From an uncultured Gammaproteobacteria bacterium (GTDB lineage Bacteria > Patescibacteriota > Patescibacteriia > Magasanikbacterales > JBBTQS01), in NCBI GenBank assembly GCA_965230935.1, contig OZ246400.1, positions 694,359 to 758,358 of the forward strand: a stretch of DNA of 64,000 nt. Direction: 5' to 3'. Positions within the stretch are counted from its first letter, which is position 1, and every line of letters starts with the position of its first letter. Under the pieces are notes generated by a model that worked only from the letters and a program-made list of their open reading frames with translations, was not told the origin of the DNA and ran no database searches. Of this stretch, positions 3,490-63,096 are shown piece by piece. The position numbers and the translations under genes were made by a program.

Positions 3490-3518
3490 TTGACAAAATC
3501 GCTTTTTTGTGCTATAGT
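3490..3518 (+). promoter_or_regulatory. consensus sigma70 promoter (TTGACA-17 nt-TATAGT) for cassette A
   Basis: TTGACA at 3490-3495, 17 nt spacer, TATAGT at 3513-3518. GC-rich sequence begins immediately downstream. Confidence 0.55.
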
Positions 3519-3580
3519 ACGTGGTCGTTGGGTTGATCTCAGCGGCAGAGCCTCCCTTTGATAGGGAAAGGAGAACGTTT

Positions 3581-4046
3581 CGTGAAGACTTTCGAGTTCA
3601 ATTTCAGCGAGTCCGTGGCCTTCCGTCGGTTCATGCAGGAGCTCACCTGGCGCCGGGATTCCCTGCCCCTGAGTGACCTGTTCGAGCGTACCGAAGGGAA
3701 CGGTAAGCGTCGTGAGTGGTTCAACCTCTCCAAGGTGGAGACGGGCGACATCATCACCTGCACCGTGAGGGAGTACTTCGTCGGCTTCGGGTTCAGCTAC
3801 CCCGATGGTGGCAGCGACTTCATCAACCTGACCGGCACGGACGTGATGGATCAGGACGACACCTGCCGGTACCGTGAGGTGCGGTTCTACGTCCAGGACA
3901 TGCCCCGCGGCGAGGACGAGCTCATGGCTACCGTCGTGGTGGCCAAACGAGAGCGCTCCTACGAGGACGGGGACACGACCCGCTACAACACCATCTGGGC
4001 CGTGGACCTCGTGTGCTGGGAGGGCGACTGGGCTCTGGACGGCTAA
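3581..4046 (+). CDS. hypothetical protein, GC-rich cassette A (155 aa from GTG; listed ORF starts at TTG 3558)
   Basis: About 60% GC ORF in a roughly 45% GC backbone. AGGAGA RBS 7 nt upstream of GTG 3581. High GC3 codon usage. No recognizable domain. Confidence 0.55.
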
Positions 4047-4103
4047 GCGCCGCTCCACGACTTCGCTCACGGCGCCGCTCAAGCATTCCATTTACCAAAC
4101 AAC

Positions 4104-4148
4104 ACGACGGCCGCCCCCATTTTACCCGGGAGCGGCCTTCGTTTTTTG
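4104..4148 (+). terminator. rho-independent terminator of cassette A
   Basis: Stem ACGACGGCCGC / GCGGCCTTCGT followed by T5. Preceded by CA-rich AACAACACGAC. Confidence 0.5.
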
Positions 4149-8738: not shown

Positions 8739-8838
8739 ATAATATAGATAGCGTTAGATAGGTGTTGTAAAACTAGGGCTATAATAGGTGAGTGTCACGT
8801 AAAAGTCAATAATTGGGATGGAATTTTGCCTAAATTAC

Positions 8839-8876
8839 AAAGACCCTACTGCGTGTTGAAGCGCGAGAGGGTCTTT
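8839..8876 (-). terminator. hairpin terminator downstream of cassette gene B
   Basis: On the minus strand, stop codon, then CAACAACACACAACCACAA, then AAAGACCCT..AGGGTCTTT stem. Confidence 0.45.
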
Positions 8877-8893
8877 GTGGTTGTGTGTTGTTG

Positions 8894-10096
8894 TCAGGGC
8901 TCGTCGGTCTCCAGAGGTCCTGGGTAGAAGTTGATCCTCAGGGGGAACCACGTGCACTCGGCAGGGTCGCTGATAGGATCATCGGCCGTGGGGCAGATCT
9001 CTTCCAGCGTATTGCCGGATCGGAGCATCTCCGCGAGGTAGGCACGGTGCTCCTCGATACTTGGCGGTCCTTCGACCTTCACGACGATGTCTTGAGGAAG
9101 AGCGCCCTTGTGCTTGAGCTGTGAGACCACCTGCTCCAGTTGCTCAGGATCACCGGCTGCTGCCACGAGGGCTCGCGTGTCAGCATCTGAGAACTTGTCA
9201 GGATCCAGGGCGACGCACGCTTGCGGTTCCTGGGTCTCACCAGCTTCTTCAGTACCCTCTTGGGTGTCGCACCCGCTGAGGAACATGGATTGCATCTCCT
9301 CGTCAAGCTGGTGACGGCAGCCGGGGTTGAGTGCGGTGAAGAAGGTGAACGCCACGCTGAAGTGGTCTTTCAGGTACAGCTGGAGTTGGTACGACGTGTG
9401 CTTGAGAATATTGCACGCCTCATCACGCTCCCGAGCGGCTTGCGCATTGGAACCGGAGGCCGCATCCAGAGACTGCTCGATGAGGTCGTAGACCACCAGC
9501 CAGCCGCCTTCCATCTGGTTGGCGATGATTGCGCGAGTCAGGTCGCTCATCTGCGTCGGATCGCCCACTTCCTTTTGCTCGTCGATCGCCATGAGCATGC
9601 ATTGCTCAAGGCTCTCCAGTGGCGTCTCCTCAAAGGAACACGTGCACAGCGGGTGCGACGTGCCAAAGAGGGACAGGAGCATAACAGCAATGATCTCTTC
9701 TTTCGTCTCAGGCTTGGGCTCGACGGTCATGGCGCCGGAGACCACGCGCAGCAGTGCGGTGCTGCACAGCGCTTCCAGGTTGTCTTCCTGGTTACCTGCC
9801 GAGCGCATGATGTCCAGCAGCGCGTACCACGTGGCGTAGTCGTTTGCCAGTAGGAGCTGGGCGACCACGTGTGGCGTCTGCGGGTTCATCTTGTCCTCGA
9901 CCGGGGCGAGCAGCATCTTACGCACAGCTTGCATGCGCTCGAGCTTGTTCAGCTGCATGAGCTGCTCGTACGGGGTCGTGATGGTCGGCGCCTCGTCAGA
10001 CGAATCTCGTGGCTCCCAATCAGTGAGCCACAAGATTGTTCCTGCGAGGCCGATCAGGAAACCCAACGCCAAGGCGTTGAGTTGGAGTTTGGACAT
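8894..10096 (-). CDS. hypothetical membrane-anchored protein, GC-rich, paralog of the following ORF (cassette B)
   Basis: 400 aa, N-terminal TM. Shares motifs KLERMQxVR, DYATWYAL, SHPLC, GGW, FPGC and a C-terminal ICP..DPI..C with 10316..11494. About 60% GC. Own promoter TTGACA-17-TATGCT (10217-10245, minus strand) and GGAGGGG RBS. Confidence 0.6.
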   Translation of the reverse strand: MSKLQLNALALGFLIGLAGTILWLTDWEPRDSSDEAPTITTPYEQLMQLNKLERMQAVRKMLLAPVEDKMNPQTPHVVAQLLLANDYATWYALLDIMRSAGNQEDNLEALCSTALLRVVSGAMTVEPKPETKEEIIAVMLLSLFGTSHPLCTCSFEETPLESLEQCMLMAIDEQKEVGDPTQMSDLTRAIIANQMEGGWLVVYDLIEQSLDAASGSNAQAARERDEACNILKHTSYQLQLYLKDHFSVAFTFFTALNPGCRHQLDEEMQSMFLSGCDTQEGTEEAGETQEPQACVALDPDKFSDADTRALVAAAGDPEQLEQVVSQLKHKGALPQDIVVKVEGPPSIEEHRAYLAEMLRSGNTLEEICPTADDPISDPAECTWFPLRINFYPGPLETDEP

Positions 10097-10315
10097 ATGC
10101 CCCTCCAGAGGTAAAAGGTTGTGGTCTGTAGGTCAGCGCAATACACAATGCATCGCAGACCAATCAGTGTTGAGCAGTACTCAGCACGGTTGATGCACGA
10201 TTACAGACAACGATTCAGCATACACGATTTTTAGACGGTTGTCAAGATTGCGTAGTAATTAAAAAACGCCCGTAGCACGGAACGTTTTTCGTTGTTGGTT
10301 TGTTTGGAACGTGAC

Positions 10316-11494
10316 TTACTCCTTGCCCCTCACTGAGTAGGTGGTCATTTTTTGGGGCGGGCACTTCTCCGGCGTGCGGATCGGATCTTTCACCCCAGGG
10401 CAGATCTGCTCGATCGGTGCGCCTTGGCGTTTGAGCTGGATGAGCATACTGCGAAGTTCCTCAGGAGTAGTATCCTGCTCGGTCTTGATGAGCTGGCTTC
10501 GGTCCTTGGCACCAAGTTGGCGTGCCATTTCCTCGTCGCGCTGTGCATCGTTGTCGAGCTCCGCCAGCTTGTACAACATTGCCTCTTGCTCTTCGCGACA
10601 CGCTTGCTCTTGCGCTGCCTCACTCAGCTCACCCTCTTGAGCTTGCTCATCGGTCTCCTCAACCGGATCGCAAGTGAGGTCCTCGCTGAGCGTATCGGGA
10701 AGACCTTCTTTGCAGCCAGGAAAGAAGAGGGCGAACATGGCAAAACGCAAGCTGTACTCGTCAGCAGAGAGCGTGTTCAGTCTGCCAGCGACACGCCACA
10801 AAAACTCGCAGGTCTCTTTTTGCTGGGCATCTTCCCGCTTTCCGGAGGTGCCATTCTTCATGGCCGAGTAGACAGCTGACCAGCCGCCGACCATCTTGCT
10901 CGCCAGGATGTTGCGTGCGACCTCATCAATTACCGGGTCGAACTCGAGCGGGTTCTCTTTGTGCAATCGTTGCACCTCATCCTGGGTTTCTTTGCCGATT
11001 TGATGCGCCCAATCCGGGTAGTCCGGCAGCATGCACAGTGGGTGTGACCAGAGGTGAGTCACGATGCGCAAGTCATCCGGGACTCCTTGCGGATCGGTAC
11101 CTATGACCACGCGCATCAGTGCGATACACATGGGGTGGTCCAGGTCGATGCCGGTAGCTCCTGCCTGCTCCATGATTTCGTACAGGGCATACCAGGTGGC
11201 GTAGTCCTCGTTACGCAGCAGGTCGATAACCTCATGCGCAGCGCCGGGATCGTCCGGATCCCACTCCTTGGTGAGCGCCTCGCGCACGTGTTGCATGCGC
11301 TCGAGTTTGCTCATCATGGAAAGCGGCTTAGTTAGGTTCGAGCCGGCGTACACCACCAGCTGACTCTGGTAATAGGAGCGCACCGCGCTTCCCACACCGA
11401 GAGCAACCAGTAGTGCGATGATGACGATGGGCACTCTGCGCACCCACCGATGACGTTGCAAGAACGTCAAGTTTTTGGGTTTGCGAACGCTCAT
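10316..11494 (-). CDS. hypothetical membrane-anchored protein, GC-rich, paralog of previous (cassette C)
   Basis: 392 aa, N-terminal TM, same motif set as B. AGGAG RBS. Minus-strand 3' flank CCAAACAAACCAACAACG plus hairpin 10262-10289. Confidence 0.6.
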   Translation of the reverse strand: MSVRKPKNLTFLQRHRWVRRVPIVIIALLVALGVGSAVRSYYQSQLVVYAGSNLTKPLSMMSKLERMQHVREALTKEWDPDDPGAAHEVIDLLRNEDYATWYALYEIMEQAGATGIDLDHPMCIALMRVVIGTDPQGVPDDLRIVTHLWSHPLCMLPDYPDWAHQIGKETQDEVQRLHKENPLEFDPVIDEVARNILASKMVGGWSAVYSAMKNGTSGKREDAQQKETCEFLWRVAGRLNTLSADEYSLRFAMFALFFPGCKEGLPDTLSEDLTCDPVEETDEQAQEGELSEAAQEQACREEQEAMLYKLAELDNDAQRDEEMARQLGAKDRSQLIKTEQDTTPEELRSMLIQLKRQGAPIEQICPGVKDPIRTPEKCPPQKMTTYSVRGKE

Positions 11495-11652
11495 GTCACT
11501 CCTTCTCTCTCACGCGGTCGGGGTAATCGGGTGGTCGTAGCGGGGTATCAACAATAATATCCCAGACCAGATAGTATTTGGCGCGCCAAACAGTACCGAT
11601 CTGTAATATGACGTAACGTACGACCATACCCAGTTTAAACACACTTGTCAAG

Positions 11653-13068
11653 TTGACATCACTAGTCTTGAGTCTCTTGATCATTTATAGTATACCTACT
11701 ACGCAAACAGCGCAGCACATGAAACGATTTACGTATAAAGCAATTTTAGAGTTTTTAAAGCTTCTGGTTCAGATTAAGCGATTTTTTGTAGTGATTGGGC
11801 GATATTTAGGTCAATGGCTTTCTCGATTTTTTGGTAAAAGCGCGCGGATTTTACTCTTTGGAGGATATAAGCGCTACGTTGGGGTTCGTCGAAAAATGTC
11901 GAGTTATTTAGGAAACACAGAGGATAAAGTATATGCGATTTCGTCCCATACGGTGTTTAGTAGCATATTGATTGGTGTATTGGTACTCACCTTAATTATG
12001 CCGCACACACGGTTTTGGGTGCCGTCTGCCTATGGTGCTGGGAATAATAGTGTGTTGCTCCAGGTCTTGGCACCTGGTGAAGAAGAAGCATCGTTTGCCC
12101 AAGATGTCATTATTACAGAAACTGCTCAAGCGGCCCCTACCGCTTCAGCGCAAGCAGACCCATTTGCGTTTGCTGTAAAGACGCAACCAGAGGCAGTAGG
12201 GACTGATAATGATCAAGACATTGATCAATTAGTTGGTGTTTGGGGAGACGGTGCAAACATTGCCGCACCTATGATTTTGCCAGGAGCTGAGGTAACACCA
12301 TCACGCCGCGCGATCACTACATACGTGGTTCAGCAAGGAGATAGTGTTGGTACTATTGCTGAGAAGTTTGGTGTGAGTGTGAATACTTTACTGTGGGAAA
12401 ACAATTTAAATGCACGATCTTATATTCGTCCCGGTGATGTGTTGGCGATTTTGCCGGTAAGTGGTGTTTCACATGTGGTCAAGCGTGGCGAGACACTCAG
12501 TAAGATTGCCAAGAAGTATTCAATTGATGCTACCAGTGAGCTGGTCGAGTTTAATCGTTTGGCAAATGCCAACGATATTGTGATTGGAGAAAAGATTGTG
12601 ATTCCAGGCGGGAAGAAGATTAAGACCGTACCGCGTGTGACCAGTCCAGTATATGCACCAAAGTCATATAGTAATATTGCTGCGCCACCACCAAGTCGTT
12701 ATGCAGCAGGTGAAGGAATGGTGTGGCCAACCAGTGGTCATGTAGTGACGCAATATTATCATGCACGCCATCAGGCACTGGATATTGATGGGCATTATGA
12801 TTCTCCACTCTACGCATCAGATTCAGGAGTGGTGACGATTTCTGGTTGGCGTAAAGGATATGGACTTGGTATTGATATTGATCATGGTAATGGAATTAAA
12901 ACTCGGTATGGTCATGCGAGTAAGTTGTTTGTTTCAGTGGGTGATCGCGTTACCAAGGGTGAAGTGATTGCGATGATGGGAACCACTGGGTATTCAACTG
13001 GTACACATTTGCATTTTGAGATTCATGTGAATGGGGTGAAGGTAAACCCATTCCGTTACGTGCGGTAA
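11653..13068 (+). CDS. LysM-domain M23 family metallopeptidase
   Basis: Two LysM repeats (GDSVGTIAEKFGVS, GETLSKIAKKYSI). C-terminal M23 signature HxxxD...HLHFE (HQALDIDG, GTHLHFEIHVNG). True start may be internal (M at 11721). Confidence 0.85.
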   Translation: MTSLVLSLLIIYSIPTTQTAQHMKRFTYKAILEFLKLLVQIKRFFVVIGRYLGQWLSRFFGKSARILLFGGYKRYVGVRRKMSSYLGNTEDKVYAISSHTVFSSILIGVLVLTLIMPHTRFWVPSAYGAGNNSVLLQVLAPGEEEASFAQDVIITETAQAAPTASAQADPFAFAVKTQPEAVGTDNDQDIDQLVGVWGDGANIAAPMILPGAEVTPSRRAITTYVVQQGDSVGTIAEKFGVSVNTLLWENNLNARSYIRPGDVLAILPVSGVSHVVKRGETLSKIAKKYSIDATSELVEFNRLANANDIVIGEKIVIPGGKKIKTVPRVTSPVYAPKSYSNIAAPPPSRYAAGEGMVWPTSGHVVTQYYHARHQALDIDGHYDSPLYASDSGVVTISGWRKGYGLGIDIDHGNGIKTRYGHASKLFVSVGDRVTKGEVIAMMGTTGYSTGTHLHFEIHVNGVKVNPFRYVR

Positions 13069-16530: not shown

Positions 16531-16567
16531 TAGCGTGAGCTTATGGCTCACGCTATTTTGTTTTTTA
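16531..16567 (+). terminator. rho-independent terminator of efp
   Basis: TAGCGTGAGC/GCTCACGCTA stem then T-run. Confidence 0.6.
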
Positions 16568-16585
16568 ATTTTTCCAAAAAGAAAA

Positions 16586-16745
16586 CGGCCCGACTGGTTA
16601 GCAGCAGTCTGGGCCGTCGTGTTGAGGTCACCCTGGGCGCGTCCTGGTAGGACAGGAACGTTCGAAGCGGGCGTCGAAACCGAGGGCCAAGAACAGGGAC
16701 TCGATCTGAGTTCCACCCCTCGTCCAGGGCAACCAGTCTGAACGG
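16586..16745 (+). ncRNA. candidate structured non-coding RNA (GC-rich multi-stem element, unknown class)
   Basis: Roughly 160 nt at about 62% GC inside AT-rich intergenic DNA, bounded by two terminators. Nested helices: GGCCCGACTG/CAGTC-T-GGGCC hairpin, long-range CCCTGGGCG(16631-39)/CGTCCAGGG(16721-29) with a G.U pair valid only on the plus strand, and internal hairpins TCCTG..CAGGA, GTTCGA..TCGAAAC, CGAGGG..CCCTCG. No convincing ORF. Confidence 0.35.
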
Positions 16746-16771
16746 TAGCATGATTGGCATGTATTGTCAAT

Positions 16772-16806
16772 ACAAAAAACGAGTGAGAAAGCTCGCTCGT
16801 TTTTTG
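16772..16806. terminator. bidirectional hairpin terminator (recA side)
   Basis: ACGAGTGAG..CTCGCTCGT stem flanked by A7 and T5. Confidence 0.5.
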
Positions 16807-18059: not shown

Positions 18060-18581
18060 ATGGGCAAGCATAACCGGCCAAAAGGTAAGAAAAAAGTGGG
18101 GGGAAAGAAGCAGTGCAAAAAGCCGCCCAAAAAACGCTCCAGTCCAAAGCGAAAACCCTATCGGTTTGCCGTGCCAACTCCAAAAGAGGGTGTTCGGGAG
18201 ATCGTGATTCAGCTTTGGCATGGGGACGAGTTGCTTGATCAAGAACCTCTTGATCTTTCAAGTTTTTTAATGTTGTCACTGCAACTTTCAAGCATTTTCT
18301 ATCGGTTGGCGGGGGAACATGTCCCCGTTATCTTGCAAGATGCCGTGGTCTCCCAAGGGATTGCGGTGTTCCAGACAACCTTAGACGCATACGAAAAACA
18401 GCGATTTCCGGATGAGAAAACGCGTCCTGCGATGCCGCAGATGAAGCTTCCGGTGATCACTCCAAAGGGGTCGTGCGTCGTAGAGTATGATGGTACGGAT
18501 CGGGAACCGACGTGTCACATGTCCGATGGAACCTTCACCTTGGAAGAACTCAAGGCGCTGAAAAAAAAGAAGCGCAACTAA
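18060..18581 (+). CDS. hypothetical protein with highly basic N-terminus (cassette L)
   Basis: 173 aa, about 52% GC. Own promoter-like TTGCGT-17-TAGGAT. 3' flank CTCACACAACCACTCGACGAACACACC plus hairpin and T-run, same layout as the other GC-rich cassettes. Confidence 0.5.
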   Translation: MGKHNRPKGKKKVGGKKQCKKPPKKRSSPKRKPYRFAVPTPKEGVREIVIQLWHGDELLDQEPLDLSSFLMLSLQLSSIFYRLAGEHVPVILQDAVVSQGIAVFQTTLDAYEKQRFPDEKTRPAMPQMKLPVITPKGSCVVEYDGTDREPTCHMSDGTFTLEELKALKKKKRN

Positions 18582-18631
18582 CCATAACTCACACAACCAC
18601 TCGACGAACACACCAGTGCTCGTTGTTTGTT

Positions 18632-31373: not shown

Positions 31374-31439
31374 TGTAGATTTTTCTCTAAAATCAACAAC
31401 ACCGCCACGTGGTGGGGTGTTGGTGGTTGTGTTGAGTTT

Positions 31440-32087
31440 TCAGTCGCTCTTGCTGGTGTAGTAGAGCTTACCTAGCAGGGCTTTTTGTTGTGCCTCGTCA
31501 AGTCCTCTGAAGAAGCGCATGGCTCCAGGGATCACATCACTCACGTGATGAGCGACCGTATTCTCCGGGAGCTCACCCACCGGCCACCAGCGAGCAGTCT
31601 TGCCTTTTTGGGGATGGCCAGCCAAGGTCACCAGGAATACGTGTGGATGTCCCCAGCCGCGGTCGTCGTCGATGAAGTGATCACTCGCAAGGGTGAAGTC
31701 CGAGATCTCGACCCCAAACTCACTCCGGCTCAGGCGGCTGACTACCGCCCGGTGATCCTCCCTGAATCGGTAGATCGACCCAGGGCAGTGCCACATGCCC
31801 CCGTAATGCGGGTCGTTGTCCGGTCGCAGGGCCATGAAGACCTCAATACGCGTCGCACGAGATCGCCCTCCAGCGTAGTAGCAACGGCGCAACGCCACTG
31901 CCTCGAACGCGCTGTACGGACGTACTCGCAAGAGCGCCTCGAACAACTCGTGCGAATGCTGTGCTGCCGGGTCAACTCGACCGAGCATCTCCATCAGCAA
32001 CGCTTCTTGATCAGCAGGTATGAGTTGCTGAACCAGATGCGCCACCCTGGATAGGCTTTCAACCAAAGCCAAATCCCTCCTTCTTGT
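31440..32087 (-). CDS. hypothetical protein, GC-rich (cassette D). Start uncertain (TTG/ATG near 32050-32093)
   Basis: About 60% GC ORF. Upstream minus-strand promoter TTGACA(32141-46)-17-TATGCT(32118-23) and AAGGAGGG RBS. 3' flank CAACACAACCACCAACACC plus palindrome CCACCACGTGGTGG. Weak Nudix-like PxxGGMWHCPGS segment, but no Nudix box. Confidence 0.5.
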   Translation of the reverse strand, partial: TRRRDLALVESLSRVAHLVQQLIPADQEALLMEMLGRVDPAAQHSHELFEALLRVRPYSAFEAVALRRCYYAGGRSRATRIEVFMALRPDNDPHYGGMWHCPGSIYRFREDHRAVVSRLSRSEFGVEISDFTLASDHFIDDDRGWGHPHVFLVTLAGHPQKGKTARWWPVGELPENTVAHHVSDVIPGAMRFFRGLDEAQQKALLGKLYYTSKSD

Positions 32088-32222
32088 ATTCAACCGGAAC
32101 TGCCGGCACAGGCAAGGAGCATACCATGGCGGTACGCTCCTGTCAATATAAAAGCAAAACCCGAGCCATAGCTGGCACGGGATGCGTTGTGTGTTTGTTT
32201 TGACTTGGAGATGGGCGCGTGG

Positions 32223-32954
32223 TTAAGCTCTTGCCTTAGTGATCGCCGGCATGACCTCGTCCTGCACGAACTGCTCTGGTGTCGGCACTTGGCTCCAGTC
32301 CGGATCCTCACCGATCGTCTCGGCCGTGAAGTTGGCTCGCGCGAGCGGCGTGTCGATCAGGCCAGGCTCCAGTAGTACCAGCTTGACCTTCCCACCATAA
32401 TACGCGATTGAGTGCGTGAGCAGTCCCTTGTGCCATTTACTGACTTGGCGCATGGAGAAGACGTATCCATGCTCGTTTTCCATGCGCGGGTCATCGTCAG
32501 CGAAGTTCGCCGCCTGGGAGCTGACGTTCACTATCACGCCACCACCACCTGTGTTGTACAACGCCAGCGAGAACATGTGACACATCATCACCTTGCTGAT
32601 GAAGTTCACCAGCTCGAGTCGAGCGATCACAGCCTCCTTGCCATCCCCATTGGGATTGTTGTCCCACATGAACATCCCGGCGGCGTTCACCAGAATGTCG
32701 AGACGTTTGGTTCGCGCATGCACTTGCGCGCCCAACCTCTGGATCGAGCACGGGTCAGTGACGTCTGTGATCATGATCGCGCCGTGCTGCTCTCCGCCTA
32801 CCGCCTCCAGCGTCTCTTGGAGTCGCGCCTCGTTGCGCGCCACCAGAAAGACAAAGTACCCGTCTTGGGCAAGCGCCACCGCAATGGCGCGACCGATGCC
32901 GCTTGAGGCGCCGGTGACCAGTGCGTATCGCATGGTTGGTGTTCCCTCACTCAT
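32223..32954 (-). CDS. short-chain dehydrogenase/reductase (SDR) family oxidoreductase, GC-rich (cassette E)
   Basis: TGASSGIGRAIA Rossmann motif, NAAG, downstream Tyr/Lys region. About 62% GC. 3' flank AAACAAACACACAACG plus hairpin plus U-run (32155-32215, minus strand). Confidence 0.8.
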   Translation of the reverse strand: MSEGTPTMRYALVTGASSGIGRAIAVALAQDGYFVFLVARNEARLQETLEAVGGEQHGAIMITDVTDPCSIQRLGAQVHARTKRLDILVNAAGMFMWDNNPNGDGKEAVIARLELVNFISKVMMCHMFSLALYNTGGGGVIVNVSSQAANFADDDPRMENEHGYVFSMRQVSKWHKGLLTHSIAYYGGKVKLVLLEPGLIDTPLARANFTAETIGEDPDWSQVPTPEQFVQDEVMPAITKARA

Positions 32955-33973: not shown

Positions 33974-33995
33974 AGTAGAGCAAAAAAGAAAGGTA

Positions 33996-34025
33996 AACAC
34001 CTGGTGATGAGCCAGGTGTTTTTTT
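33996..34025 (+). terminator. rho-independent terminator of trxB
   Basis: AACACCTGG/CCAGGTGTT stem plus T7. Confidence 0.6.
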
Positions 34026-34110
34026 ATATTGACAATTGAGAGAAATTGATATAGTGTCGCATCAGACAGGAGTCACTGAACCAATACAGGACGTTATCGA
34101 GGAGGGAATC

Positions 34111-34779
34111 ATGCCACAGGATCTCACGTGGCAGGAGTGGTTGGCAGCGTACCGAGCTAACCATGCAATGGAGGTACGTCGATGTACGTTGGGTGCTCTG
34201 GCACAGGGCATCCCGCAGGACAAATCCCACACGGTGTGGCGCATGCAGCCCAGTGAGGTGTTTGGTCGCGAGGATGGCGCGTTCTTTCATTTGACCGGAG
34301 CGCGCATCAGCTTGCGAGGAGGCGAGCGTGAGGTTGCTGCTTGGTCCCAGCCCATGCTGGTCGAGAGCGGTGAGGGGCGCGTGGTTTTGCTGCGTCGCGG
34401 GATAAGGTATTTGCTGCAGGCCAAGCTCGAGCCAGGCAACCCCGTGTCCGGCAATCGCGTACTGATTGCACCGACGATCCAAGCATCAGAGTCGAATCTC
34501 GCACAGAAGCACGGCGGTCGTCGCCCGCGTCACGCCGAACGACTCGACACTGCGGATGGTCCGCGTTGGTACAAGGCTCCTCAAGATGGTGGTCGGTTTG
34601 ACCAGAAGGTCAACCAGTATGCGGTTATCCCGGCAGGTTCTCGTCCGATTCAGATCGATCCAGATTCAGAGCGCTGGTTCGACGTCAACGAGCTGGCCGA
34701 AGTGATCGTCTCTGGTGAGGCCAACCAGCATCTGCGTGAGGCTTTCGGTTTTATTTGGGCCGCTGAGTACATGGAGTAA
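34111..34779 (+). CDS. hypothetical protein, GC-rich (cassette F). Possibly NDP-hexose 2,3-dehydratase-like single repeat.
   Basis: AGGAGG RBS 6 nt before ATG 34111. Promoter hexamers TTGACA(34029)/TATAGT(34050) with a 15 nt spacer. Segments LLQAKLEPGNP and APTIQASESNL recalled as resembling the hexose-dehydratase family (from memory, not verified). Followed by (CACAA)n 34779-34803. Confidence 0.55.
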   Translation: MPQDLTWQEWLAAYRANHAMEVRRCTLGALAQGIPQDKSHTVWRMQPSEVFGREDGAFFHLTGARISLRGGEREVAAWSQPMLVESGEGRVVLLRRGIRYLLQAKLEPGNPVSGNRVLIAPTIQASESNLAQKHGGRRPRHAERLDTADGPRWYKAPQDGGRFDQKVNQYAVIPAGSRPIQIDPDSERWFDVNELAEVIVSGEANQHLREAFGFIWAAEYME

Positions 34780-34832
34780 CACAACACAACACAACAACAC
34801 GACCCGAGCATAACTGCCGGGCCTTGTTTATA

Positions 34833-34861
34833 TTGACAATTTTTGCGCGAGAGCATATACT
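34833..34861 (+). promoter_or_regulatory. consensus-like promoter TTGACA-17-TATACT for cassette G
   Basis: Shares the 14-mer TTATATTGACAATT with the promoter of cassette F (34024-34037 vs 34828-34841). Confidence 0.5.
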
Positions 34862-34902
34862 GCCGCTTCCAGCTATGATGGCTGTGAGAAGGGAGGAGAT
34901 AA

Positions 34903-35739
34903 ATGGCTGACGAGATAAACTCCGAACAGGAACGGATAAAACAGCAGGCGCTTACGCGCGTACGAAGTACCTCGATTGCGCAGTTGCGCAATACTCCACC
35001 ACTAGTCGTAGCGGTTGTGCTTTTGGAGACTCGGCTCGGTGGGCTGGAGGGGTGGGATATCCCCGAGGAAGTCCGAGAAGACCTGACACAAAAGCGTCGA
35101 GCGCTCGCACAGGCAATGCAGCGCCCGGGCCACCACAGTTATGTGGGGATGTATCTGCCATATCGTGATCCAGAAGGACGCGAGCGATGGGTGCATTTTG
35201 GGACGCAGTACATGCGTGATGTCAAGAAGACACGCTCCGGACTCGCTGCACTGATCAATCATGGCCGTCCGTGTACCGACGCATTGCGAGACTTGTTGGC
35301 TGAGTTTGTAGACTCCTGTCCCAACGAGGAAGGAGACATTTACTTGGTTGACACCCGTCTTCGTGCCATATCCTCAGATCACCTACCGTATCATTGGGAA
35401 TTCGGTTTGCACATCGCGTTACTGGTAGCGCGCGAACAGGCCGGAAGAATTATGTCGCGGTGGGTAAGTCTGAGTAAGCGCTGCCCCCTGATTCCGTTGG
35501 CAGATGCTGCACCGGACATCTGGCTCGTATTTCGTGAACGAGAAGAGGAGGGATTTGTCCAGGAGGCGTTGGCGGGTGAGAATCTCCAGGAGATCGCGGT
35601 TGAGGATGGCGTAGATGAGATACTCGCGCTTCGCCCTCAATGCCGGCACGTCGTGGTCATGGTGGACACTCCGGCGCAGGCCGCGGCAGTAGTCATTGAG
35701 ATCGGGAGACGGGTGCTCAACGCGCGTCTTACTCCATGA
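34903..35739 (+). CDS. hypothetical protein, GC-rich (cassette G)
   Basis: 278 aa. GGGAGGAG RBS. About 62% GC. Followed by CACACAACACAACAACC (35745-35763) and hairpin plus T6 (35766-35798). No recognizable domain. Confidence 0.55.
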   Translation: MADEINSEQERIKQQALTRVRSTSIAQLRNTPPLVVAVVLLETRLGGLEGWDIPEEVREDLTQKRRALAQAMQRPGHHSYVGMYLPYRDPEGRERWVHFGTQYMRDVKKTRSGLAALINHGRPCTDALRDLLAEFVDSCPNEEGDIYLVDTRLRAISSDHLPYHWEFGLHIALLVAREQAGRIMSRWVSLSKRCPLIPLADAAPDIWLVFREREEEGFVQEALAGENLQEIAVEDGVDEILALRPQCRHVVVMVDTPAQAAAVVIEIGRRVLNARLTP

Positions 35740-35840
35740 CTCCGCACACAACACAACAACCAAAATCCGCTCATTCGAGGACTCGATCAGGCGGTTTTTT
35801 GATCTTAAAATTTACTCAAATTATGCTATACTATTAATAT

Positions 35841-36152
35841 ATGACAATCTCAGAACTCTTGTTTGCAACCACGACACCCAGTCTCTCACAAATCATCTTG
35901 GTGGTACTTGGTTTTCTTGGTGCCATCCTCATGGTATATGGGATTTTTTTGGAGAAAGAGCGATTGCAAGATGCTGTATTTGCTCTTGGTTCGTTGATGT
36001 TGGGAGTCTATTCACTCTCAGTTCATAATGCGATTTTTACTATTGTATTTGGGTTATTTTTCCTGGGAAGTGCTTGGGAGTATATTCAAATCGTAACCGG
36101 CAAGCACAAACATATCTGCTACCCCTGTGTGAGCGGTAAGAAAAAATCATAG
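35841..36152 (+). CDS. small membrane protein, hypothetical
   Basis: 103 aa with two or three hydrophobic helices. -10 TATACT upstream. Confidence 0.4.
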   Translation: MTISELLFATTTPSLSQIILVVLGFLGAILMVYGIFLEKERLQDAVFALGSLMLGVYSLSVHNAIFTIVFGLFFLGSAWEYIQIVTGKHKHICYPCVSGKKKS

Positions 36153-41194: not shown

Positions 41195-42586
41195 TTGGAG
41201 GAAATAATGGGCCGTAAGTTCTTGATGAACGTCGCGTGCACACTTCTGATGGGTGCATGTCAGTCTGTGGTGCCGGATGCTTTTTCTGGTGGTGTGGTTG
41301 TTTCGGACGCTGATGTGGGGTTGGTTCCGGCGGGTTCAAGTGGCGTTATATCAACGGGTGTTGCAGATGGTGTAGGTGTGGTGTTGGATGAGTCCCAGGA
41401 TACGCAGCGTGGCGACGAGGCGGAGATGGACTCTCAACAGGATGGCGAGCCGACGATTGAGCACCAAGACGAAGTGATCGCTGTTGAGGAGCGCCTTGCT
41501 GGAACCTGTTGGTACATCGATCCAGCCAAGCACTGGCTGGACGAGACCAACGCAGTGCTTGCCATGAGCAACGACGATGTGGTGGTGATCGGGAACACCC
41601 ACGTGGCAGTGAGTGAGTACGCTGTACAAAAAGATGCCGTGATCACGCTACTCAATCGCTCAGGAGATCTGCTTTGGCAAGAGCAGCTCGGGTGGACAGA
41701 CCATGACGACCTTACCGCTGCTGTGGTGAGGGATGATACCCGATTTTTAGCCGTTGGGAACACACGTTCTTCTGGATCAGGTGGATCGGACGCGTGGATC
41801 ATAGAGATGGATGTGAGTGGTGAGCTGATTTGGGAGGAAGATTATGGCGGCGTGAACAATGATGTTGCTCGTTCGATCGCTCGTGATCTTGAGGGCGGGT
41901 ACATTGTTGTTGGCAATACTGGAAATGTGGTTGATGGTGTTGCCACGTCACCCTGGATATTTCGCATTAGCGAAATGGGACTTATGCAGTGGGGGAAGAT
42001 TTTAGGGCTCAAGCAGGGCGGCGTGCTTTCTGATGTGATTCGCATTAGCGAGAACGAATTTGTTGCGGTTGGCTCGACCGTGATGGATAGTGATGGAGAA
42101 ATCAAAACTATTCTGGTGCGGTTTGCACAAAATGGTGGTGTGATTTGGCAGGTGCTGCATAGCGCGATCCCGTATCAGGTTGGTCAATCAGTGGTGCAGA
42201 CCGCAAGTGGTGACTTTGTCATCACCGGCTATGCCGACATCGGTGAGCAATACCTGCATGACGGTTTTGTCCTACGCGTTACCGCTGAGGGTGGGTTTGT
42301 TTGGCAAAAGACATTGGGTGGTGATTACTATGACACCTTTACTGCAGCGGCCTGGACACTTGGTGATCATGTCTTGTTGGCAGGACTGACTCGTTCGTAT
42401 GGGTACGGCGGGGCTGATATGTGGTTGGTCAAGATGAAAGCTGGCGGTCAAGTGCTCTGGGAACAGGCCCATGGCACTCCTGATTTTGAAAAGGCTAACG
42501 CGGTGTTACCGCTTGAAGATGGGATGATTCTAGCGGGTCGCGGTGGGGTGTACCGACTCAATACGCATGGGCAGCTGTGTCCATAA
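41195..42586 (+). CDS. beta-propeller repeat lipoprotein (SBBP-like repeats), GC-enriched (cassette H)
   Basis: Lipobox LLMGAC. Seven approximately 50-aa repeats of the pattern VGNT..G..DAWI..D.SG...W. Promoter TTGGCA-17-TATAGT, GGAGG RBS. 3' flank TAACAACATAACAACGCACC plus hairpin. Confidence 0.6.
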   Translation: MEEIMGRKFLMNVACTLLMGACQSVVPDAFSGGVVVSDADVGLVPAGSSGVISTGVADGVGVVLDESQDTQRGDEAEMDSQQDGEPTIEHQDEVIAVEERLAGTCWYIDPAKHWLDETNAVLAMSNDDVVVIGNTHVAVSEYAVQKDAVITLLNRSGDLLWQEQLGWTDHDDLTAAVVRDDTRFLAVGNTRSSGSGGSDAWIIEMDVSGELIWEEDYGGVNNDVARSIARDLEGGYIVVGNTGNVVDGVATSPWIFRISEMGLMQWGKILGLKQGGVLSDVIRISENEFVAVGSTVMDSDGEIKTILVRFAQNGGVIWQVLHSAIPYQVGQSVVQTASGDFVITGYADIGEQYLHDGFVLRVTAEGGFVWQKTLGGDYYDTFTAAAWTLGDHVLLAGLTRSYGYGGADMWLVKMKAGGQVLWEQAHGTPDFEKANAVLPLEDGMILAGRGGVYRLNTHGQLCP

Positions 42587-42707
42587 CAACATAACAACGC
42601 ACCTCGTTATCCTTGAGCTTGGATGGCGAGGTTTGCATTGCCAAAAGTGCTTTTTCAGGCCAATATAGAGATATGGTAAGAAAATAGAGACCATTGCGTC
42701 AGATATC

Positions 42708-53534: not shown

Positions 53535-53606
53535 ATTATTACAAATGGTTAAGCGCTACATCAAAACCAGGAACCTTTCGGCTCCTGGTTTTTGGTTGTA
53601 GCGACG

Positions 53607-55340
53607 TTACCCTCCCTCGGTTTGGAGTTGTACCAGACGGTGGTACAGTCCATTTTGTCGCATGAGTTGATCGTGCGTTCCCACCTCGGCCACGCGACCA
53701 TCTTCCACGATGATGATCTTGTCCGCGTGCATGATGGTGGAGAGTCGGTGCGCAATGAGGATCAGCGTCTTTTTCCCTTCCAGAGTCGACAGCGCATCTT
53801 GAATGGCACGCTCAGACTCTGCATCCAGGTTGCTGGTTGCCTCATCAAACACCACCACGGTCGGATCGTTGAGCAGTGCTCGCGCAATACCCACTCGCTG
53901 CCGTTGTCCACCGGAGAGTTTCATACCACGCTCACCTACGATGGTGTTGTACCCGTCCGGGAGTGTAGAAGCAAACTCATGCACCCGTGCTAGCTTAGCC
54001 ACTCGTTTGACCGCTTGCTCGGTTGCTTTCGGGTTCCCATACGCAATGTTCTCCCAGATCGTTCCACTCATGATCTCGACCTCTTGCGGAACATATCCGG
54101 TCATGCGACGGTAGGCTTGCAGGCTGAGACCTCGCAAGTCATTCCCGTCGATGCGGATGGTTCCTGAGTTAGGGTCATAGTAGCGGAACAGTAGCTTCAC
54201 GATGGTCGACTTCCCACCCCCTGATGGTCCGGCAAATGCCACCGTCTCCCCAGGGTTGATGGAGAAGTTCACGTTGGAGAGTGCGTTTTGTTCTGGGGTG
54301 TACCCAAACGTCACGTCATCGAATGTGATTGCTCCGGTCCAGCGTTTTGGCGCGATCGCACCAGGTGCACTTACCACACGTGGTTTGGTGTGAATGATGT
54401 TGAACAGTCGTTGCATCGGCTCTGTTGCCTCAACCATGCGGTCGAGAATTTGGTTCAGGTTGAACATTGAAATGTACACCTTCTCCGAGAGCGTCAGAAA
54501 CAACACGACCGAACCAATGGTAAGTTCTCCAGTGATGGCTTTGTATCCAGCAAGTGAGATGATCCCAAGTCGTCCGAAGTTGATGATCATCATGCGCCAG
54601 AAGTTCATGCGCGTGCCGAACATCCAACGTAATCGTCCCAGGTCATAGATCCGTCCGCGCATTGCACCGTAGCGCTTCTTCTCGCGCTGCTCTTGGGCAA
54701 ACGCTTGCACTGTTTTGATGTTGATCACCGACTCGCACAGCCGACCGGCTGAGTTCTCGTACAGATCTTCTTGCTCTTTGCGCCACGGGTATGTGGTGTG
54801 ATGCAAATGCCAGGTCATGATCGCAAAGATCGGGATGACGATAGCAAAGAGAATGGCAAGCTGCCAATCTAGTGCGATCATCAAGATCGATGTCCAGGTG
54901 ATTTGCATGAGTAGGGGAATGAGCATCCACAACAGCTGTCCACCGAACTCGACCAGCTTCATGGTTCCGCGTTCAAGACGTGCGATTTGTTCACCGGTTT
55001 GTTCTTGCTCATGGAACCCGAGCGAGAGTGCCAAAAGTTTTTTCTGTGCGAGCTTCGGCAGCTCGTTTTCCATCCAGTACAATGCATCAAGGATGTAGCG
55101 ATCCACGATTACGTCGACCGCCGCAATCAGTGTTTGCGCCACAAAGATTCCCAGTGCCAACCAGAGGATGGTACTGAGTAGATCATCGGTGCGTAGTGTC
55201 AATGTGTCGAGCACTTCCTTAAAGAGGTATGTCGGCACAATCATCAGTGCTTCAAGCACCACGATGAACGCGATTGCCTTTTGGAAGACCTTCCGATGCG
55301 GTCTGATCAACCGTAGGAACTGTGATATGAATTCTTGCAT
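53607..55340 (-). CDS. ABC transporter permease/ATP-binding protein (MsbA-like exporter), GC-enriched (cassette I)
   Basis: Six N-terminal TMs. Walker A GPSGGGKST, signature LSGGQRQR, Walker B VVVFDEATS. Start at ATG (MQEF) with AAGGAG RBS. About 55% GC. Confidence 0.85.
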   Translation of the reverse strand: MQEFISQFLRLIRPHRKVFQKAIAFIVVLEALMIVPTYLFKEVLDTLTLRTDDLLSTILWLALGIFVAQTLIAAVDVIVDRYILDALYWMENELPKLAQKKLLALSLGFHEQEQTGEQIARLERGTMKLVEFGGQLLWMLIPLLMQITWTSILMIALDWQLAILFAIVIPIFAIMTWHLHHTTYPWRKEQEDLYENSAGRLCESVINIKTVQAFAQEQREKKRYGAMRGRIYDLGRLRWMFGTRMNFWRMMIINFGRLGIISLAGYKAITGELTIGSVVLFLTLSEKVYISMFNLNQILDRMVEATEPMQRLFNIIHTKPRVVSAPGAIAPKRWTGAITFDDVTFGYTPEQNALSNVNFSINPGETVAFAGPSGGGKSTIVKLLFRYYDPNSGTIRIDGNDLRGLSLQAYRRMTGYVPQEVEIMSGTIWENIAYGNPKATEQAVKRVAKLARVHEFASTLPDGYNTIVGERGMKLSGGQRQRVGIARALLNDPTVVVFDEATSNLDAESERAIQDALSTLEGKKTLILIAHRLSTIMHADKIIIVEDGRVAEVGTHDQLMRQNGLYHRLVQLQTEGG

Positions 55341-55840
55341 GTGTTTGTTGGTTACTCCTTCTTTCTCCTTCAAGTCCCTTCTTTCCCGCCTCGTGTTCGT
55401 GTACACGAAAATACTCTGCTTCTTAGAAGCAGAGTATTTATTCGAAAATTGCTAATTTAAGCTAAATTCATGATTTCGAAGAAACACACTGCTCCCAAGA
55501 GTTGGTATCGACATATGCAATACCGCGTGCCTGTGGGGTAACAGTTGGCATGCCAAAAGCAAGCCCTACCATGAGCTGGAAGGATGCAAACTTCTGGTTT
55601 TGCCAGTGTTTCTCCATAGAGATTAAAAATAATTGTCGTTATTGTAGACGTTTCCAGAGTGGAAACGTTACACTATAGCGCGCGCAATATGAGATGTCAA
55701 GAATCATATTTTAGGGTCACTTATTGACAAACGTACATCTTTATGCTACACTATCCGCGTATAAATGCAGTCTCATTACTGGGAATAGTGTCGATATTTC
55801 TCAAGAGTCAAGCATATACATGTAAGAAAATATCTACGTT

Positions 55841-56673: not shown

Positions 56674-56743
56674 GGGATATTGTCATAATTAAAACAACCT
56701 CGTCCTGGTGAGGAAGAGGTTGTTTTGTTGTGCTGTTGTGTTA

Positions 56744-57407
56744 TCACTTCATGAAGAAGCGTTGTGCGTTCTCGCCGACCACTCGTCGAATCTGCCACTC
56801 CTCCAGTCCGTGCGCGAGCAGGGAGCGGATCAAGGTCTTGAAGCAGTCTGCGACCGTGTGGCAGCCGGGTAGACGCCACTCGTCCAGAATGCCGCCGTAG
56901 TCGGTACCGATCCCTACCTGGAGCCACTCGCTGGCTTCTCCGAGCTCCACCAGATGCTCGATGAAGGGGCCATCCAGTCGCTCGTAGAATGGCTTTGCAG
57001 GAGAGAGGCACACGATGCCGCCGAGCTGGATGATCTCACGTGCCAGATGCATACTCAGGCACCGATCGTAGTTGCCATTTCGCAGTAGCGGGTTGACCAC
57101 TTCACTGTGCTGTACACCACCGTGGGTGTAACACAGTGGCGGCGCGCCTCCCCAGTGCCAGTATCCAGCATCTTTTAGGGTGTAACTCAGTGCGGATGAC
57201 CTCCACCTCGGCTTTGTGGGCGGGCGTGGTCTTGGGATAGGTTCCATCCCGTTCGCAGAACAGGACGCGCAAGGCGCCACCGAGCTGGTCCATGTTGGCG
57301 AGCTGTTCGGCAGACCCCCATCCGCCGCTCTGCTCACCATACTGATCCAGATGTGCGTCAAAGCACATAAACGGACGGTCATACCCGTCAATGGTGATTC
57401 CAGGCAC
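56744..57407 (-). pseudogene. amidohydrolase-2 (PF04909-like metal-dependent hydrolase), frameshifted and shortened, GC-rich (cassette J)
   Basis: GTG start with AAAGGAGG RBS. N-terminal metal-binding FDAHLD in one frame. H.GG (LCYTHGG) and GIGTDYGG (metal-binding Asp) plus C-terminal ENAQRFF in the +1 frame. Frames switch near 57190. 3' flank TAACACAACAGCACAACAAAACAACC plus hairpin 56690-56735. Confidence 0.5.
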
Positions 57408-58481: not shown

Positions 58482-59097
58482 CAGAAAAGTCGAACTGTTT
58501 TGCAGATTTCATGAGACCAAACTCTGTATAGGTTGGGGCCGCATAGGCAATGATATGTCGGTCTCGAGTAGGGAAGATGTTCAGCTGCTGATTGGCAAAC
58601 TTCAGACCACGTTTATGAAAAAAGTTATTCAGTGGCACACCAGAATCAGTGAGGACGACAATGCCATTTGGATTGGTGCCAGGAATACGGAATTTGTTTG
58701 CGATCAGATTGGTCGAGATGAGGAGTGGATGATTCAAAAAACCTTGGTGATCAATAATGTTGATTACCAAATCGTCATCCCAATTAAGGTTCGCACGAGC
58801 GATCTCTTCTTCTGTAAATGAGCGCGCGAGCACCTCTTGCATTACCACCTTGATATTCTTTTGGCGCTCCTGGTGGACAGGATGTGCTTGATGATCGTAG
58901 AGTGTTTTTGAATATTCCCCAAGGGGGCGATGAACTTGCAAAAAATCAGCAACAAGTGGCACGACTTTTGTAATGCCGCTTTTTAAAATATCAAGTTGTG
59001 TTTGTGTCTGTGGTGTCATGTGATTGATGGTGTTGAGCACCAGCCCATGCCAGATTAAAAATGGCTCGCTGGTCGTCAACAATTTCTTTGCTTTCAA
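58405..59097 (-). CDS. hypothetical protein (N-terminal part of possible split gene)
   Basis: 230 aa ORF. Overlaps neighbours at both ends. Confidence 0.4.
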   Translation of the reverse strand: MKAKKLLTTSEPFLIWHGLVLNTINHMTPQTQTQLDILKSGITKVVPLVADFLQVHRPLGEYSKTLYDHQAHPVHQERQKNIKVVMQEVLARSFTEEEIARANLNWDDDLVINIIDHQGFLNHPLLISTNLIANKFRIPGTNPNGIVVLTDSGVPLNNFFHKRGLKFANQQLNIFPTRDRHIIAYAAPTYTEFGLMKSAKQFDFSDEELTFLQTIQDELEQSATHPKCTS

Positions 59098-61248: not shown

Positions 61249-61315
61249 GTTGTGTTGTGCACAAATAGATCAAGTTTTTGGTATACTTATCCTATAATTC
61301 TTCATGCATATTCTT

Positions 61316-62290: not shown

Positions 62291-62333
62291 TTGATCTGCA
62301 GTTTTGGATAGTTGGGGTTTCAAAAATACAAAA

Positions 62334-62359
62334 GCGGCCGGCAGTTAACTGCCGGCCGC
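62334..62359. terminator. perfect 11-bp hairpin terminator (GCGGCCGGCAG-TTAA-CTGCCGGCCGC)
   Basis: Flanked by A-run on plus and T-run on minus. Ends the minus-strand K operon. Confidence 0.55.
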
Positions 62360-62458
62360 TCTACTATCTAAAACAATTTGCGGAAAGTTGACCGCACGCT
62401 CTCGTTTCCGATGCGGGCGGTCGGGTGTAGGGTTGCGGCTCATGGCCGCGTGCGAGTT

Positions 62459-62719
62459 TCATGGCTGTTGCTCCTTGACGGTACTCCAGGCCACGGTGTT
62501 GAAAAGGATACTGGGCGGGGCATCGGTCGCCGGTGCCAGCGGCGTGTCGGGTCGCGGATCAGTGGTACTCTTGGCTTCGCGTCGTGGGATCGGGTCGGGG
62601 TGATCGAGCGCATCAGCGATGCAGGCCTCGACGGTGGTGAGATCCAGACAGCGAGAGTCAAGGGTATCAGCGATCATGGGCCAGTACGCGAGCGCGTAAC
62701 AGGCTGGCACGACCAACAT
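62459..62719 (-). CDS. small membrane protein with Pro-rich C-terminus, GC-rich (cassette K, second gene). Start uncertain.
   Basis: Hydrophobic segment FFWVSMLVVPACYALAYWPMIA. 65% GC. Directly downstream of the zinc-ribbon gene. Confidence 0.35.
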   Translation of the reverse strand: MLVVPACYALAYWPMIADTLDSRCLDLTTVEACIADALDHPDPIPRREAKSTTDPRPDTPLAPATDAPPSILFNTVAWSTVKEQQP

Positions 62720-62783
62720 GCTTACCCAGAAAAACCAGTCTTGAAAAAAGCGTAGCAGGTCTTTGAGAACCTCCGTGACGGCC

Positions 62784-63014
62784 CTTACGCCGCCTGATTG
62801 GCCGCTCGGCGTTCGGCATAGAACGCCTGGCGAGCCTGCCATTGGTCGAAACGGCGGCGAACGCGCCGGCACCCTGCGCAATGCTCTCGACCGTTGCGGT
62901 CGAAGAACATGTTGTTGCAGCGCGTCGAAGCGCAAATCCGCTTGGCCATTCCACGCATCTGGATACGGACGAGCTTGCCGTCCGGTCCCCGTTTGAGGTC
63001 GAGCTTAATGCCCA
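62784..63014 (-). CDS. small zinc-ribbon protein (CxxxC...CxxC), GC-rich (cassette K, first gene)
   Basis: 76 aa (MGIKLDLKRGPDGKLVRIQMRGMAKRICASTRCNNMFFDRNGREHCAGCRRVRRRF...). AAGGAG RBS 4 nt before ATG 63014. Arg-rich. Confidence 0.5.
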
Positions 63015-63096
63015 TGGAACTCCTTGAGATGACGTTGCATCTGAAATTACTATAGCATAGGTTTGTAACTTTTCTAAAATAAGATACAAATCTCAC

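Follow-up and report, generated by a model that had tools for sequence, protein, structure and literature searches.

What is the short tract of A and C that follows the stop codons of unrelated GC-rich genes in a 64-kb stretch of contig OZ246400.1 (positions 694,359 to 758,358; the whole stretch is referred to as the window), and does it belong to the DNA that carries these genes or to the RNA transcribed from them? The initial annotation had noticed degenerate CA repeats at these places and suggested either a common vehicle, that is, a cassette 3′ element or recombination site, or a shared regulatory element. The pattern is real, statistically strong, and tied to this lineage and its self-contained genes with a high GC content at third codon positions (GC3). 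We tentatively favour the view that the A/C tract acts at the RNA level, as a structure-free 3′UTR (3′ untranslated region) spacer that insulates the terminator of compositionally foreign, GC-rich units.

Metagenome contigs of ENA project PRJEB17505 match the window at 100% identity, and the proteins of the window are recorded on a 931-kb NCBI contig. The window carries rpoBC, recA, efp, trxB, ruvC, a split transketolase gene and a H+-pyrophosphatase gene, and its nearest relatives are metagenome-assembled genomes of Patescibacteria; the host is a small genome of the Candidate Phyla Radiation (CPR)/Patescibacteria. We examined the window together with the ∼8.4 kb to its left (the origin region; 72 kb in total), where dnaA and dnaN lie 4.5–7 kb past the window's left end and where no further cassettes were found. 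Backbone genes show a GC content of 0.41–0.48 and a GC3 of 0.30–0.49. Twelve regions of the window are GC-rich, and 11 of these (A–J and L) combine an open reading frame (ORF) of GC3 0.53–0.88 with an A/C tract, region K being the only one that lacks it. The units are scattered over at least seven separate intergenic sites on both strands. At least A–G share the same layout: an own promoter of the type TTGACA-17-TAnnnT, a 5′UTR of 35–120 nucleotides (nt), a GGAGG-type Shine-Dalgarno sequence, the ORF, the tract and a terminator. GC content rises just 3′ of the promoter and falls 3′ of the terminator, leaving the flanking core genes unaffected; the 5′UTRs and some promoter spacers are likewise GC-enriched, and C and G at third codon positions (C3 and G3) are both elevated. 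The encoded proteins are mutually unrelated except for B and C, which share 30% amino-acid identity. Those of A, B, C, D and G are orphans for which PHROGs, PADLOC and NCBIfam returned nothing informative, and the only PHROG matches were to an ABC transporter (I) and, weakly, to a β-propeller (H). The 64 kb thus contain about 12 mostly orphan accessory genes, including membrane-anchored Cys-rich paralogues and a β-propeller lipoprotein-like protein, whose products may have a role at an episymbiont's cell surface.

In all 11 units the tract lies on the sense strand, measures 12–31 nt, consists almost exclusively of A and C, and begins 0–20 nt past the stop codon (47 nt for A), directly 5′ of a hairpin and U-run. 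Five tracts are located on the plus and six on the minus strand, so that strand use follows the gene and not replication. CC is depleted (21 CC vs. 63 CA) and U almost absent, whereas backbone terminators of the same genome are preceded by mixed A-rich spacers containing G and U. In H, I and L the tract is short or broken up, and in F it is a near-perfect (CACAA)3 repeat. The pentamer ACAAC occurs in 11/11 and the heptamer ACACAAC in 7/11 tracts. Across three independent assemblies the tracts are identical and show no variation in length.

The window contains 18 CA-rich 18-mers as compared to 2.7 ± 1.7 in shuffled sequences, and about eight of them are found just past the stops of GC-rich ORFs. 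Over the first 25 nt past the stop codon, A and C together make up 72–96% for GC-rich ORFs and mostly 24–68% for backbone genes. Within 45 nt of the stop, 8/15 GC3-rich ORFs but only 2/52 others reached a CA score of 15/16 or more (Fisher p = 3.5e-5 [2–4e-5]); among the GC3-rich ORFs, four stayed below 14 within 70 nt, namely K and three short ones of doubtful status. The median segment score is 20 for cassettes vs. 7 for the backbone (Mann–Whitney p = 6.7e-7). ACACAAC is present in 16 copies in the window (12.4 expected), 10 of which fall inside seven tails covering ∼0.3% of the sequence. The presence of ACAAC in every tract was matched by 3/2000 mononucleotide shuffles and by 43/3000 first-order Markov simulations. 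The CA-rich strings listed in the initial annotation could be verified at all sites, although those of D and E had been placed 10–15 nt off (the pure A/C runs are 31409–31439 and 32186–32202, both on the minus strand). It had also been right that the backbone genes it checked lack the motif; the AACAACAC after nfo lies inside the coding sequence of the next gene. Equal frequency behind backbone genes, the outcome that would have spoken against its proposal, is not seen within the 72 kb examined.

How far this feature extends beyond the window was addressed with ∼55–60 trxB neighbourhoods from other CPR genomes and metagenomes. The tail is found at 10/62 ORFs of the window and 7/9 of its GC-rich ORFs, but at only 12/1052 ORFs of the other loci, including 3/62 GC-rich outliers. 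At a stricter segment score of at least 20 the counts are 6/62 and 2/1016, respectively, and such tails are ∼50-fold rarer outside the window. The best outside case belongs to L015, the locus of the closest relative (TrxB 77% identical). No A/C tails were detected in the GC-richer relatives L021–L023 (52% GC), where E-like and F-like genes also flank trxB. In a second relative, L004, ruvC and trxB, which flank D and E in the window, overlap, so that D and E are additional genes here. L015 has an orthologue of E (9148–9858; 57% amino-acid identity) in the same slot and orientation, and orthologues of H occupy the same place in both L004 and L015; none of them carries a tract. Because E, F and H are syntenic in relatives, several CA-tailed genes are not simple new insertions. 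Junctions in relatives that lack D and E or carry the E and H orthologues show no CA site. The slot after trxB, which extends up to a conserved small membrane ORF (window 33974–35840; L015 6850–8100; L004 10967–12266), is occupied by unrelated, GC-richer cassettes, namely F and G in the window, 241 and 111 amino acids in L015, and 108 and 267 amino acids in L004, and is a hot spot for accessory genes.

The E gene and its L015 orthologue differ in GC3 (0.74 vs. 0.42) but not in GC content at first and second codon positions (GC1 and GC2) or in amino-acid make-up, and the adjoining trxB genes are similar in GC3 (0.40 in the window, 0.33 in L015). The shift is gene-sized and purely synonymous.

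At the level of RNA, all 11 tracts are unpaired in both minimum-free-energy and centroid folds. Each is followed within 0–5 nt by the hairpin and U-run, the distance from stop codon to hairpin is at least 14 nt in every unit, and several terminators have weak U-tracts. All 11 tails are thus predicted to contain what defines an intrinsic terminator, a GC-rich hairpin, a U-run and unpaired RNA 5′ of the stem. The hairpins are no more alike than pairs of cassette and backbone terminators, and the spacer alone is therefore shared at the 3′ end. B and C both have a clean tract in front of completely different hairpins, which argues for its maintenance. The predicted folds of B, C, D, G and J have the A-rich proximal end of the tract paired with the U-run, which lengthens the stem. 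With the native spacer, the computed stem probability of the terminators averages 0.96 (range 0.90–0.99). Swapping the spacer in silico lowered this value to 0.82 for pieces of the same length from the own ORF and to 0.85 for both backbone coding and random sequence, with the weaker hairpins C, E, F and G losing most. Native spacers also leave the 5′ arm more accessible while the 3′ arm is still to be made (0.60 vs. 0.50–0.52 with swapped spacers).

From what is observed directly, that is, the position, strand, composition and predicted single-strandedness of the tract, its association with GC3-rich genes and its restriction to the lineage, we infer the following mode of action. The tract would be part of the mRNA and serve as a G- and U-depleted spacer in self-contained transcription units. 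CA repeats are the standard unstructured RNA in ribosome-standby work. Since A has no pairing partner in C, the stretch of at least 14 nt from stop codon to hairpin should stay open. This open spacer would clear the footprint of the terminating ribosome and would prevent the terminator's 5′ arm from being captured by the GC-rich ORF end ahead of the synthesis of the 3′ arm, so that the hairpin could form reliably. Its proximal A-rich end may often extend the stem by pairing with the U-run, and the slight bias towards isolated Cs and towards an ACAAC core would leave room for an added protein contact. In Escherichia coli experiments, 30 nt between stop codon and terminator can shift output five-fold via read-through. 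A shared regulatory or functional RNA element, one half of the earlier proposal, is compatible with everything we see, including the sense-strand location, the fixed place, the predicted single-strandedness and the retention in B and C.

Several points weigh against the structure-free spacer. Any unstructured sequence should serve this purpose, and the backbone indeed uses A-rich spacers with G and U, so that the choice of A and C is not explained. The tract is found at only 3/62 GC-rich outliers elsewhere in the CPR, and there is therefore no general physical need for it. Swapping the spacer makes no difference for the strong hairpins B, D, H and I, and the folding test is an equilibrium calculation with 60 nt of upstream context, neither kinetic nor experimental. 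Moreover, the presence of ACAAC in 11/11 tracts (p ∼0.014 under the first-order Markov null) hints at sequence-specific recognition.

Such recognition is central to a reading that we regard as possible but doubtful, in which the tract would be the docking site of a trans-acting factor peculiar to the lineage, be it an RNA-binding protein or a GU-rich small RNA. This factor would group the mRNAs of accessory genes post-transcriptionally by acting on stability, termination efficiency or translation; candidates are an Hfq-like protein binding (ARN)n at its distal face, a Crc/Hfq pair recognizing the “CA motif” AANAANAA, or a KH/S1-domain protein (NusA, KhpA/B). The frequency of ACAAC and ACACAAC goes beyond composition, and the single-stranded tract adjoins a hairpin and U-tail, which is the usual architecture of Hfq- or ProQ-type ligands. 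It also fits that the trait is limited to the lineage, that H, a vertically inherited gene, carries the tract, and that both B and C have kept it. However, the motif stands out only weakly once the null takes dinucleotides into account (p = 0.014 and 0.04), no gene for Hfq, CsrA or ProQ lies within the 72 kb and no factor can be named, and it is not explained why GC3-rich genes should be the targets. Rfam offers no match either: tRNA-Gly alone reached the gathering threshold, and nothing relevant appeared at E ≤ 1 in the two cassette-rich regions searched. Alternatively, the tract could be a passive signature of origin with no effect in the recipient, if whole units were imported from one unsampled, GC-richer lineage with A/C-rich 3′UTRs as its norm, probably another Patescibacterium or its mobile elements. 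We consider this, too, unlikely, though worth keeping in view. The tight link to compositionally foreign genes, the sharp GC steps at the unit ends with GC-enriched 5′UTRs and some promoter spacers, and the joint rise of C3 and G3 are what a GC-rich donor would give, and single-gene transfers, mostly between Patescibacteria, have been reported to be common (PMC12455944). Yet no donor came to light: searches of 5.8 billion proteins or of 1.84 billion representative ones gave no homologue of A, B or C, a B/C profile found no homologues and B/C gave nothing in IMG/VR, D and G match nothing in phage genomes, and the only close relative of E is the syntenic L015 gene. Since E, F and H are syntenic, import would require precise in-place replacement, but GC-rich recombination tracts are absent from the core genes on either side. 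In GC1, GC2 and amino-acid content A and E resemble the backbone, unlike genes with a long residence in a GC-rich genome, the GC-richer relatives L021–L023 have no such tails, and there is no decay gradient, as the tract score does not track GC3 (rho = 0.16).

The other half of the earlier proposal, a recombination site, here taken as an attC-like or att-core-like site in the DNA at which single-gene cassettes cross over in the A/C core, now appears very unlikely. It would account for one short shared element 3′ of many unrelated, compositionally foreign ORFs, for the exact 15-mer that the neighbours F and G share within their tracts, and for the different cassettes after trxB in three related genomes. 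But the units are scattered in both orientations, each equipped with a promoter and a genuine terminator, the tract sits within the unit and is absent 5′ of any unit or array, and the aligned tails show neither an inverted core pair nor a conserved palindrome. Neither the proteins searched nor the public gene tables for window positions 1–45,700 revealed an integrase, transposase or recombinase domain. An attC- or att-like site is thus not supported, because the hairpins are unrelated, the promoters generic and the sites scattered, no recombinase gene was found in the window, and the junctions and orthologues in relatives are free of tracts. Somewhat less improbable, but still a long shot, is that the tract marks an undescribed process of gene addition or renewal in the CPR, by which transcript-shaped GC3-rich units are written into intergenic sites or over resident accessory genes, either recombining at the A/C core or passing through RNA or cDNA as an intermediate. 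Gene renewal would explain why a syntenic gene such as E looks synonymously recoded beside untouched core genes, and sharp-edged, gene-sized blocks of synonymous GC enrichment, some over syntenic genes, could point to such an undescribed process. A short rut (Rho utilization)-like loading site, backing up the intrinsic terminator after the ribosome has left, is highly improbable. C-rich, nearly G-free, unstructured and untranslated RNA past the stop is what Rho prefers (PMC13323073), and several terminators have weak U-tracts, but the tracts are far shorter than rut sites (12–31 vs. ∼70–80 nt), the primary sites of Rho bind YC dinucleotides (PMC13323073) while the tracts are poor in CC and almost devoid of U, and an intrinsic terminator follows at once. 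Least credible is the absence of any function, with the tracts arising by slippage of CAA or CACAA units or by chance composition. The near-perfect repeat of F and the degeneracy of the motif would suit this idea; the constant strand and place in 11/11 units, the strong association statistics, the ∼50-fold excess over other CPR loci and the constant length in three assemblies do not.

Table 1. Coordinates of the GC3-rich units and their A/C tracts in the window.
Feature	Position	Strand	Description
Cassette A ORF	3582..4046	+	GTG start; 154 amino acids; orphan; GC3 0.88
A promoter	3490-3518	+	TTGACA-17-TATAGT; AAGGAG Shine-Dalgarno for A
A tract ACCAAACAACAC	4094..4105	+	47 nt past stop, after an extra hairpin; directly 5′ of terminator hairpin 4109-4137
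Cassette B ORF	8894..10096	-	Orphan; paralogue of C; GC3 0.75; promoter 10245-10217
B tract CAACAACACACAACCACAAAGACCC	8869..8893	-	3′ end of tract is 5′ arm of hairpin 8837-8878
Cassette C ORF	10316..11494	-	Orphan; GC3 0.70; promoter 11651-11623
C tract CCAAACAAACCAACAACGAAAAAC	10284..10307	-	Hairpin 10261-10290
Cassette D ORF	31440..32093	-	Orphan; GC3 0.66; promoter 32146-32118; missing in relatives L004 and L015
D tract	31409..31439	-	Hairpin 31397-31422, bidirectional terminator common to D and ruvC
Cassette E ORF	32223..32954	-	Short-chain dehydrogenase; GC3 0.74
E tract CAAAACAAACACACAAC	32186..32202	-	20 nt past stop; hairpin 32160-32181
F promoter	34029	+	TTGACA; Shine-Dalgarno GGAGG; ATG 34111
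Cassette F ORF	34111..34779	+	Nudix-fold, NDP-hexose 2,3-dehydratase-like; GC3 0.64
F tract CACAACACAACACAACAACACGACCC	34780..34805	+	Begins immediately past TAA; predicted unpaired
F terminator hairpin	34803..34821	+	Followed by CCUUGUUUAUAUUG and -35 of G
Cassette G ORF	34903..35739	+	Orphan; GC3 0.58; promoter 34833-34861, TTGACA-17-TATACT
G tract CACACAACACAACAACCAAAA	35745..35765	+	15-mer ACACAACACAACAAC common to F and G tracts
G terminator hairpin plus U6	35767..35794	+
Gene H	41195..42586	+	β-Propeller; GC3 0.53; orthologues in same place in L004 and L015
H tract CAACATAACAACGCACC	42587..42603	+	Interrupted; hairpin 42601-42632
Gene I	53607..55406	-	ABC transporter; GC3 0.63
I tract ACAACCAAAAACCA	53586..53599	-	Short; runs into hairpin 53563-53592
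Cassette J ORF	56744..57391	-	Weak peptidase M19-like match; GC3 0.69
J tract AACACAACAGCACAACAAAACAACC	56718..56742	-	Hairpin 56695-56722
Gene L	18060..18581	+	Orphan; GC3 0.55
L tract	18590..18615	+	Interrupted; hairpin 18602-18625, common to L and convergent rodZ-like gene

Some of these loci show further features of their own. The public ORF on the minus strand at 3480–4091 (203 amino acids, GC1 0.80, GC3 0.57) is an antisense shadow of gene A; because the real gene lies on the plus strand and the minus strand was called, the true A protein is missing from the protein database. B and C (8894–11655, minus strand) are tandem orphan paralogues with an N-terminal hydrophobic segment and six conserved cysteines. 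Their ∼120-nt 5′UTRs share conserved blocks (CTGGTCTGNGAT and ATTGT), which might constitute a leader element, and have no Rfam match. Region K (62300–63020) is GC-rich with ambiguous coding strands and contains a Cys-rich (zinc-ribbon-like) ORF of 76 codons (62785–63015, minus strand) with a TATAGT box and an AAGGAG site. Directly past the recA terminator (16548–16800, minus strand), a promoter-like sequence TATTGACA-17-TACCGT precedes an uncalled, GC-richer ORF of 70 codons that ends at the bidirectional terminator of efp and could be a small gene or a small RNA. The conserved small membrane ORF that closes the trxB slot (35841–36152) has a TATACT box 8–9 nt before its ATG (35820–35843) and no Shine-Dalgarno sequence. 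This arrangement suggests a leaderless mRNA and is kept in the window, L004 (∼12250) and L015 (∼6800).

Two further CA-related sequences occur outside the 11 units. A gene for a TrmB-like regulator (58991–59016, minus strand) ends in a translated CA tract (...HHQSHDTTDTNTT*), which may be a former 3′UTR tract drawn into the ORF through loss of the stop codon. The sequence GTTGTGTTGTG (61249–61264, plus strand), which complements exactly, probably by chance, the CACAACACAAC core found in F and G, forms a small hairpin directly past the stop of a 2′-5′ RNA ligase-like gene.

A number of other candidates were considered and rejected. Local alignment of the tails (E with F, D with L) suggested homologous 3′ modules, but a cassette hairpin and U-run aligned to a backbone one scores equally high. 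A promoter chassis shared by F, G and D or by D and E was dismissed since TATTGACA-17-TAnnnT is the promoter type of the backbone as well. A Chi site or DNA uptake sequence does not apply, as the word shows no over-representation and its orientation is that of the gene, and an extension by read-through yields no consistent peptide. Neither a repetitive extragenic palindrome (REP) nor a miniature inverted-repeat element (MITE) was identified, because no repeat family covers the tails.

Which known system do the tract and its units resemble most? Phage morons are autonomous promoter-ORF-terminator units of deviant GC content between conserved neighbours. The units of the window are alike in having an own σ70-type promoter, a single ORF, an own terminator and a deviant composition, and in separating genes that are neighbours in relatives, such as ruvC and trxB in L004. 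Unlike morons, they are located in a bacterial chromosome near the replication origin, next to core genes (rpoBC, recA, efp, trxB, tkt) without prophage context, and some (E, F and H) are syntenic in relatives; to our knowledge, a CA tract has not been described as a feature of morons. Integron cassettes likewise have a short element, attC, past the stop of many unrelated, often orphan ORFs of foreign composition. The comparison with attC, att and REP elements that the initial annotation had called for did not bear out this parallel. The aligned and folded tails share no R″ (RYYYAAC) or R′ (GTTRRRY) cores and no imperfect palindrome, their hairpins being ordinary GC stems with U-runs, and neither intI nor attI nor an array of one orientation was found in the window. 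Integron cassettes are also mostly promoterless, whereas every unit here has a promoter and a U-run terminator.

Parallels also exist among RNA elements. The (ARN)n sites of the Hfq distal face and the Crc/Hfq sites of Pseudomonas (AANAANAA) are found at ribosome-binding regions in 5′UTRs and act on translation initiation. They are A-rich, C-interspersed, single-stranded motifs (AACAACA) like those found here beside a hairpin and U-tail, but the AACAAC-type strings of most tracts stand in 3′UTRs. CA-rich 5′ leaders and translation enhancers use the same alphabet and are equally unstructured; the tracts of the window, however, precede a terminator and then a promoter, not a start codon. The 15-mer common to F and G has more than 120 matches in IMG/VR contigs, mostly as part of a 5′ leader that runs up to the next gene's ATG, and these viral carriers were accordingly rejected as the same element or as a donor. 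In the IMG/VR contigs L106, L168, L200, L201 and L215, CA tracts mostly stand immediately 5′ of start codons, often without a Shine-Dalgarno sequence, and resemble unstructured 5′ leaders.

The closest match is the stop-to-terminator spacer, including the A-tract of bidirectional terminators, which has the same position and the same neighbours and whose A-rich end pairs with the U-run, as predicted for B, C, D, G and J; the sequence of such spacers is known to alter both termination and expression. If the structure-free spacer is functional, it would represent a simple rule of natural design, an insulator made of A and C alone that allows clean termination of GC-rich genes in a host of lower GC content, and would bear on how streamlined uncultured bacteria domesticate acquired genes as well as on the design of constructs. 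The tract is best filed as a variant of the stop-to-terminator spacer and not as an attC- or att-like site, a variant that differs from the known form in its near-exclusive use of A and C, its isolated Cs, its ACAAC core, and its confinement to one gene class in one lineage.

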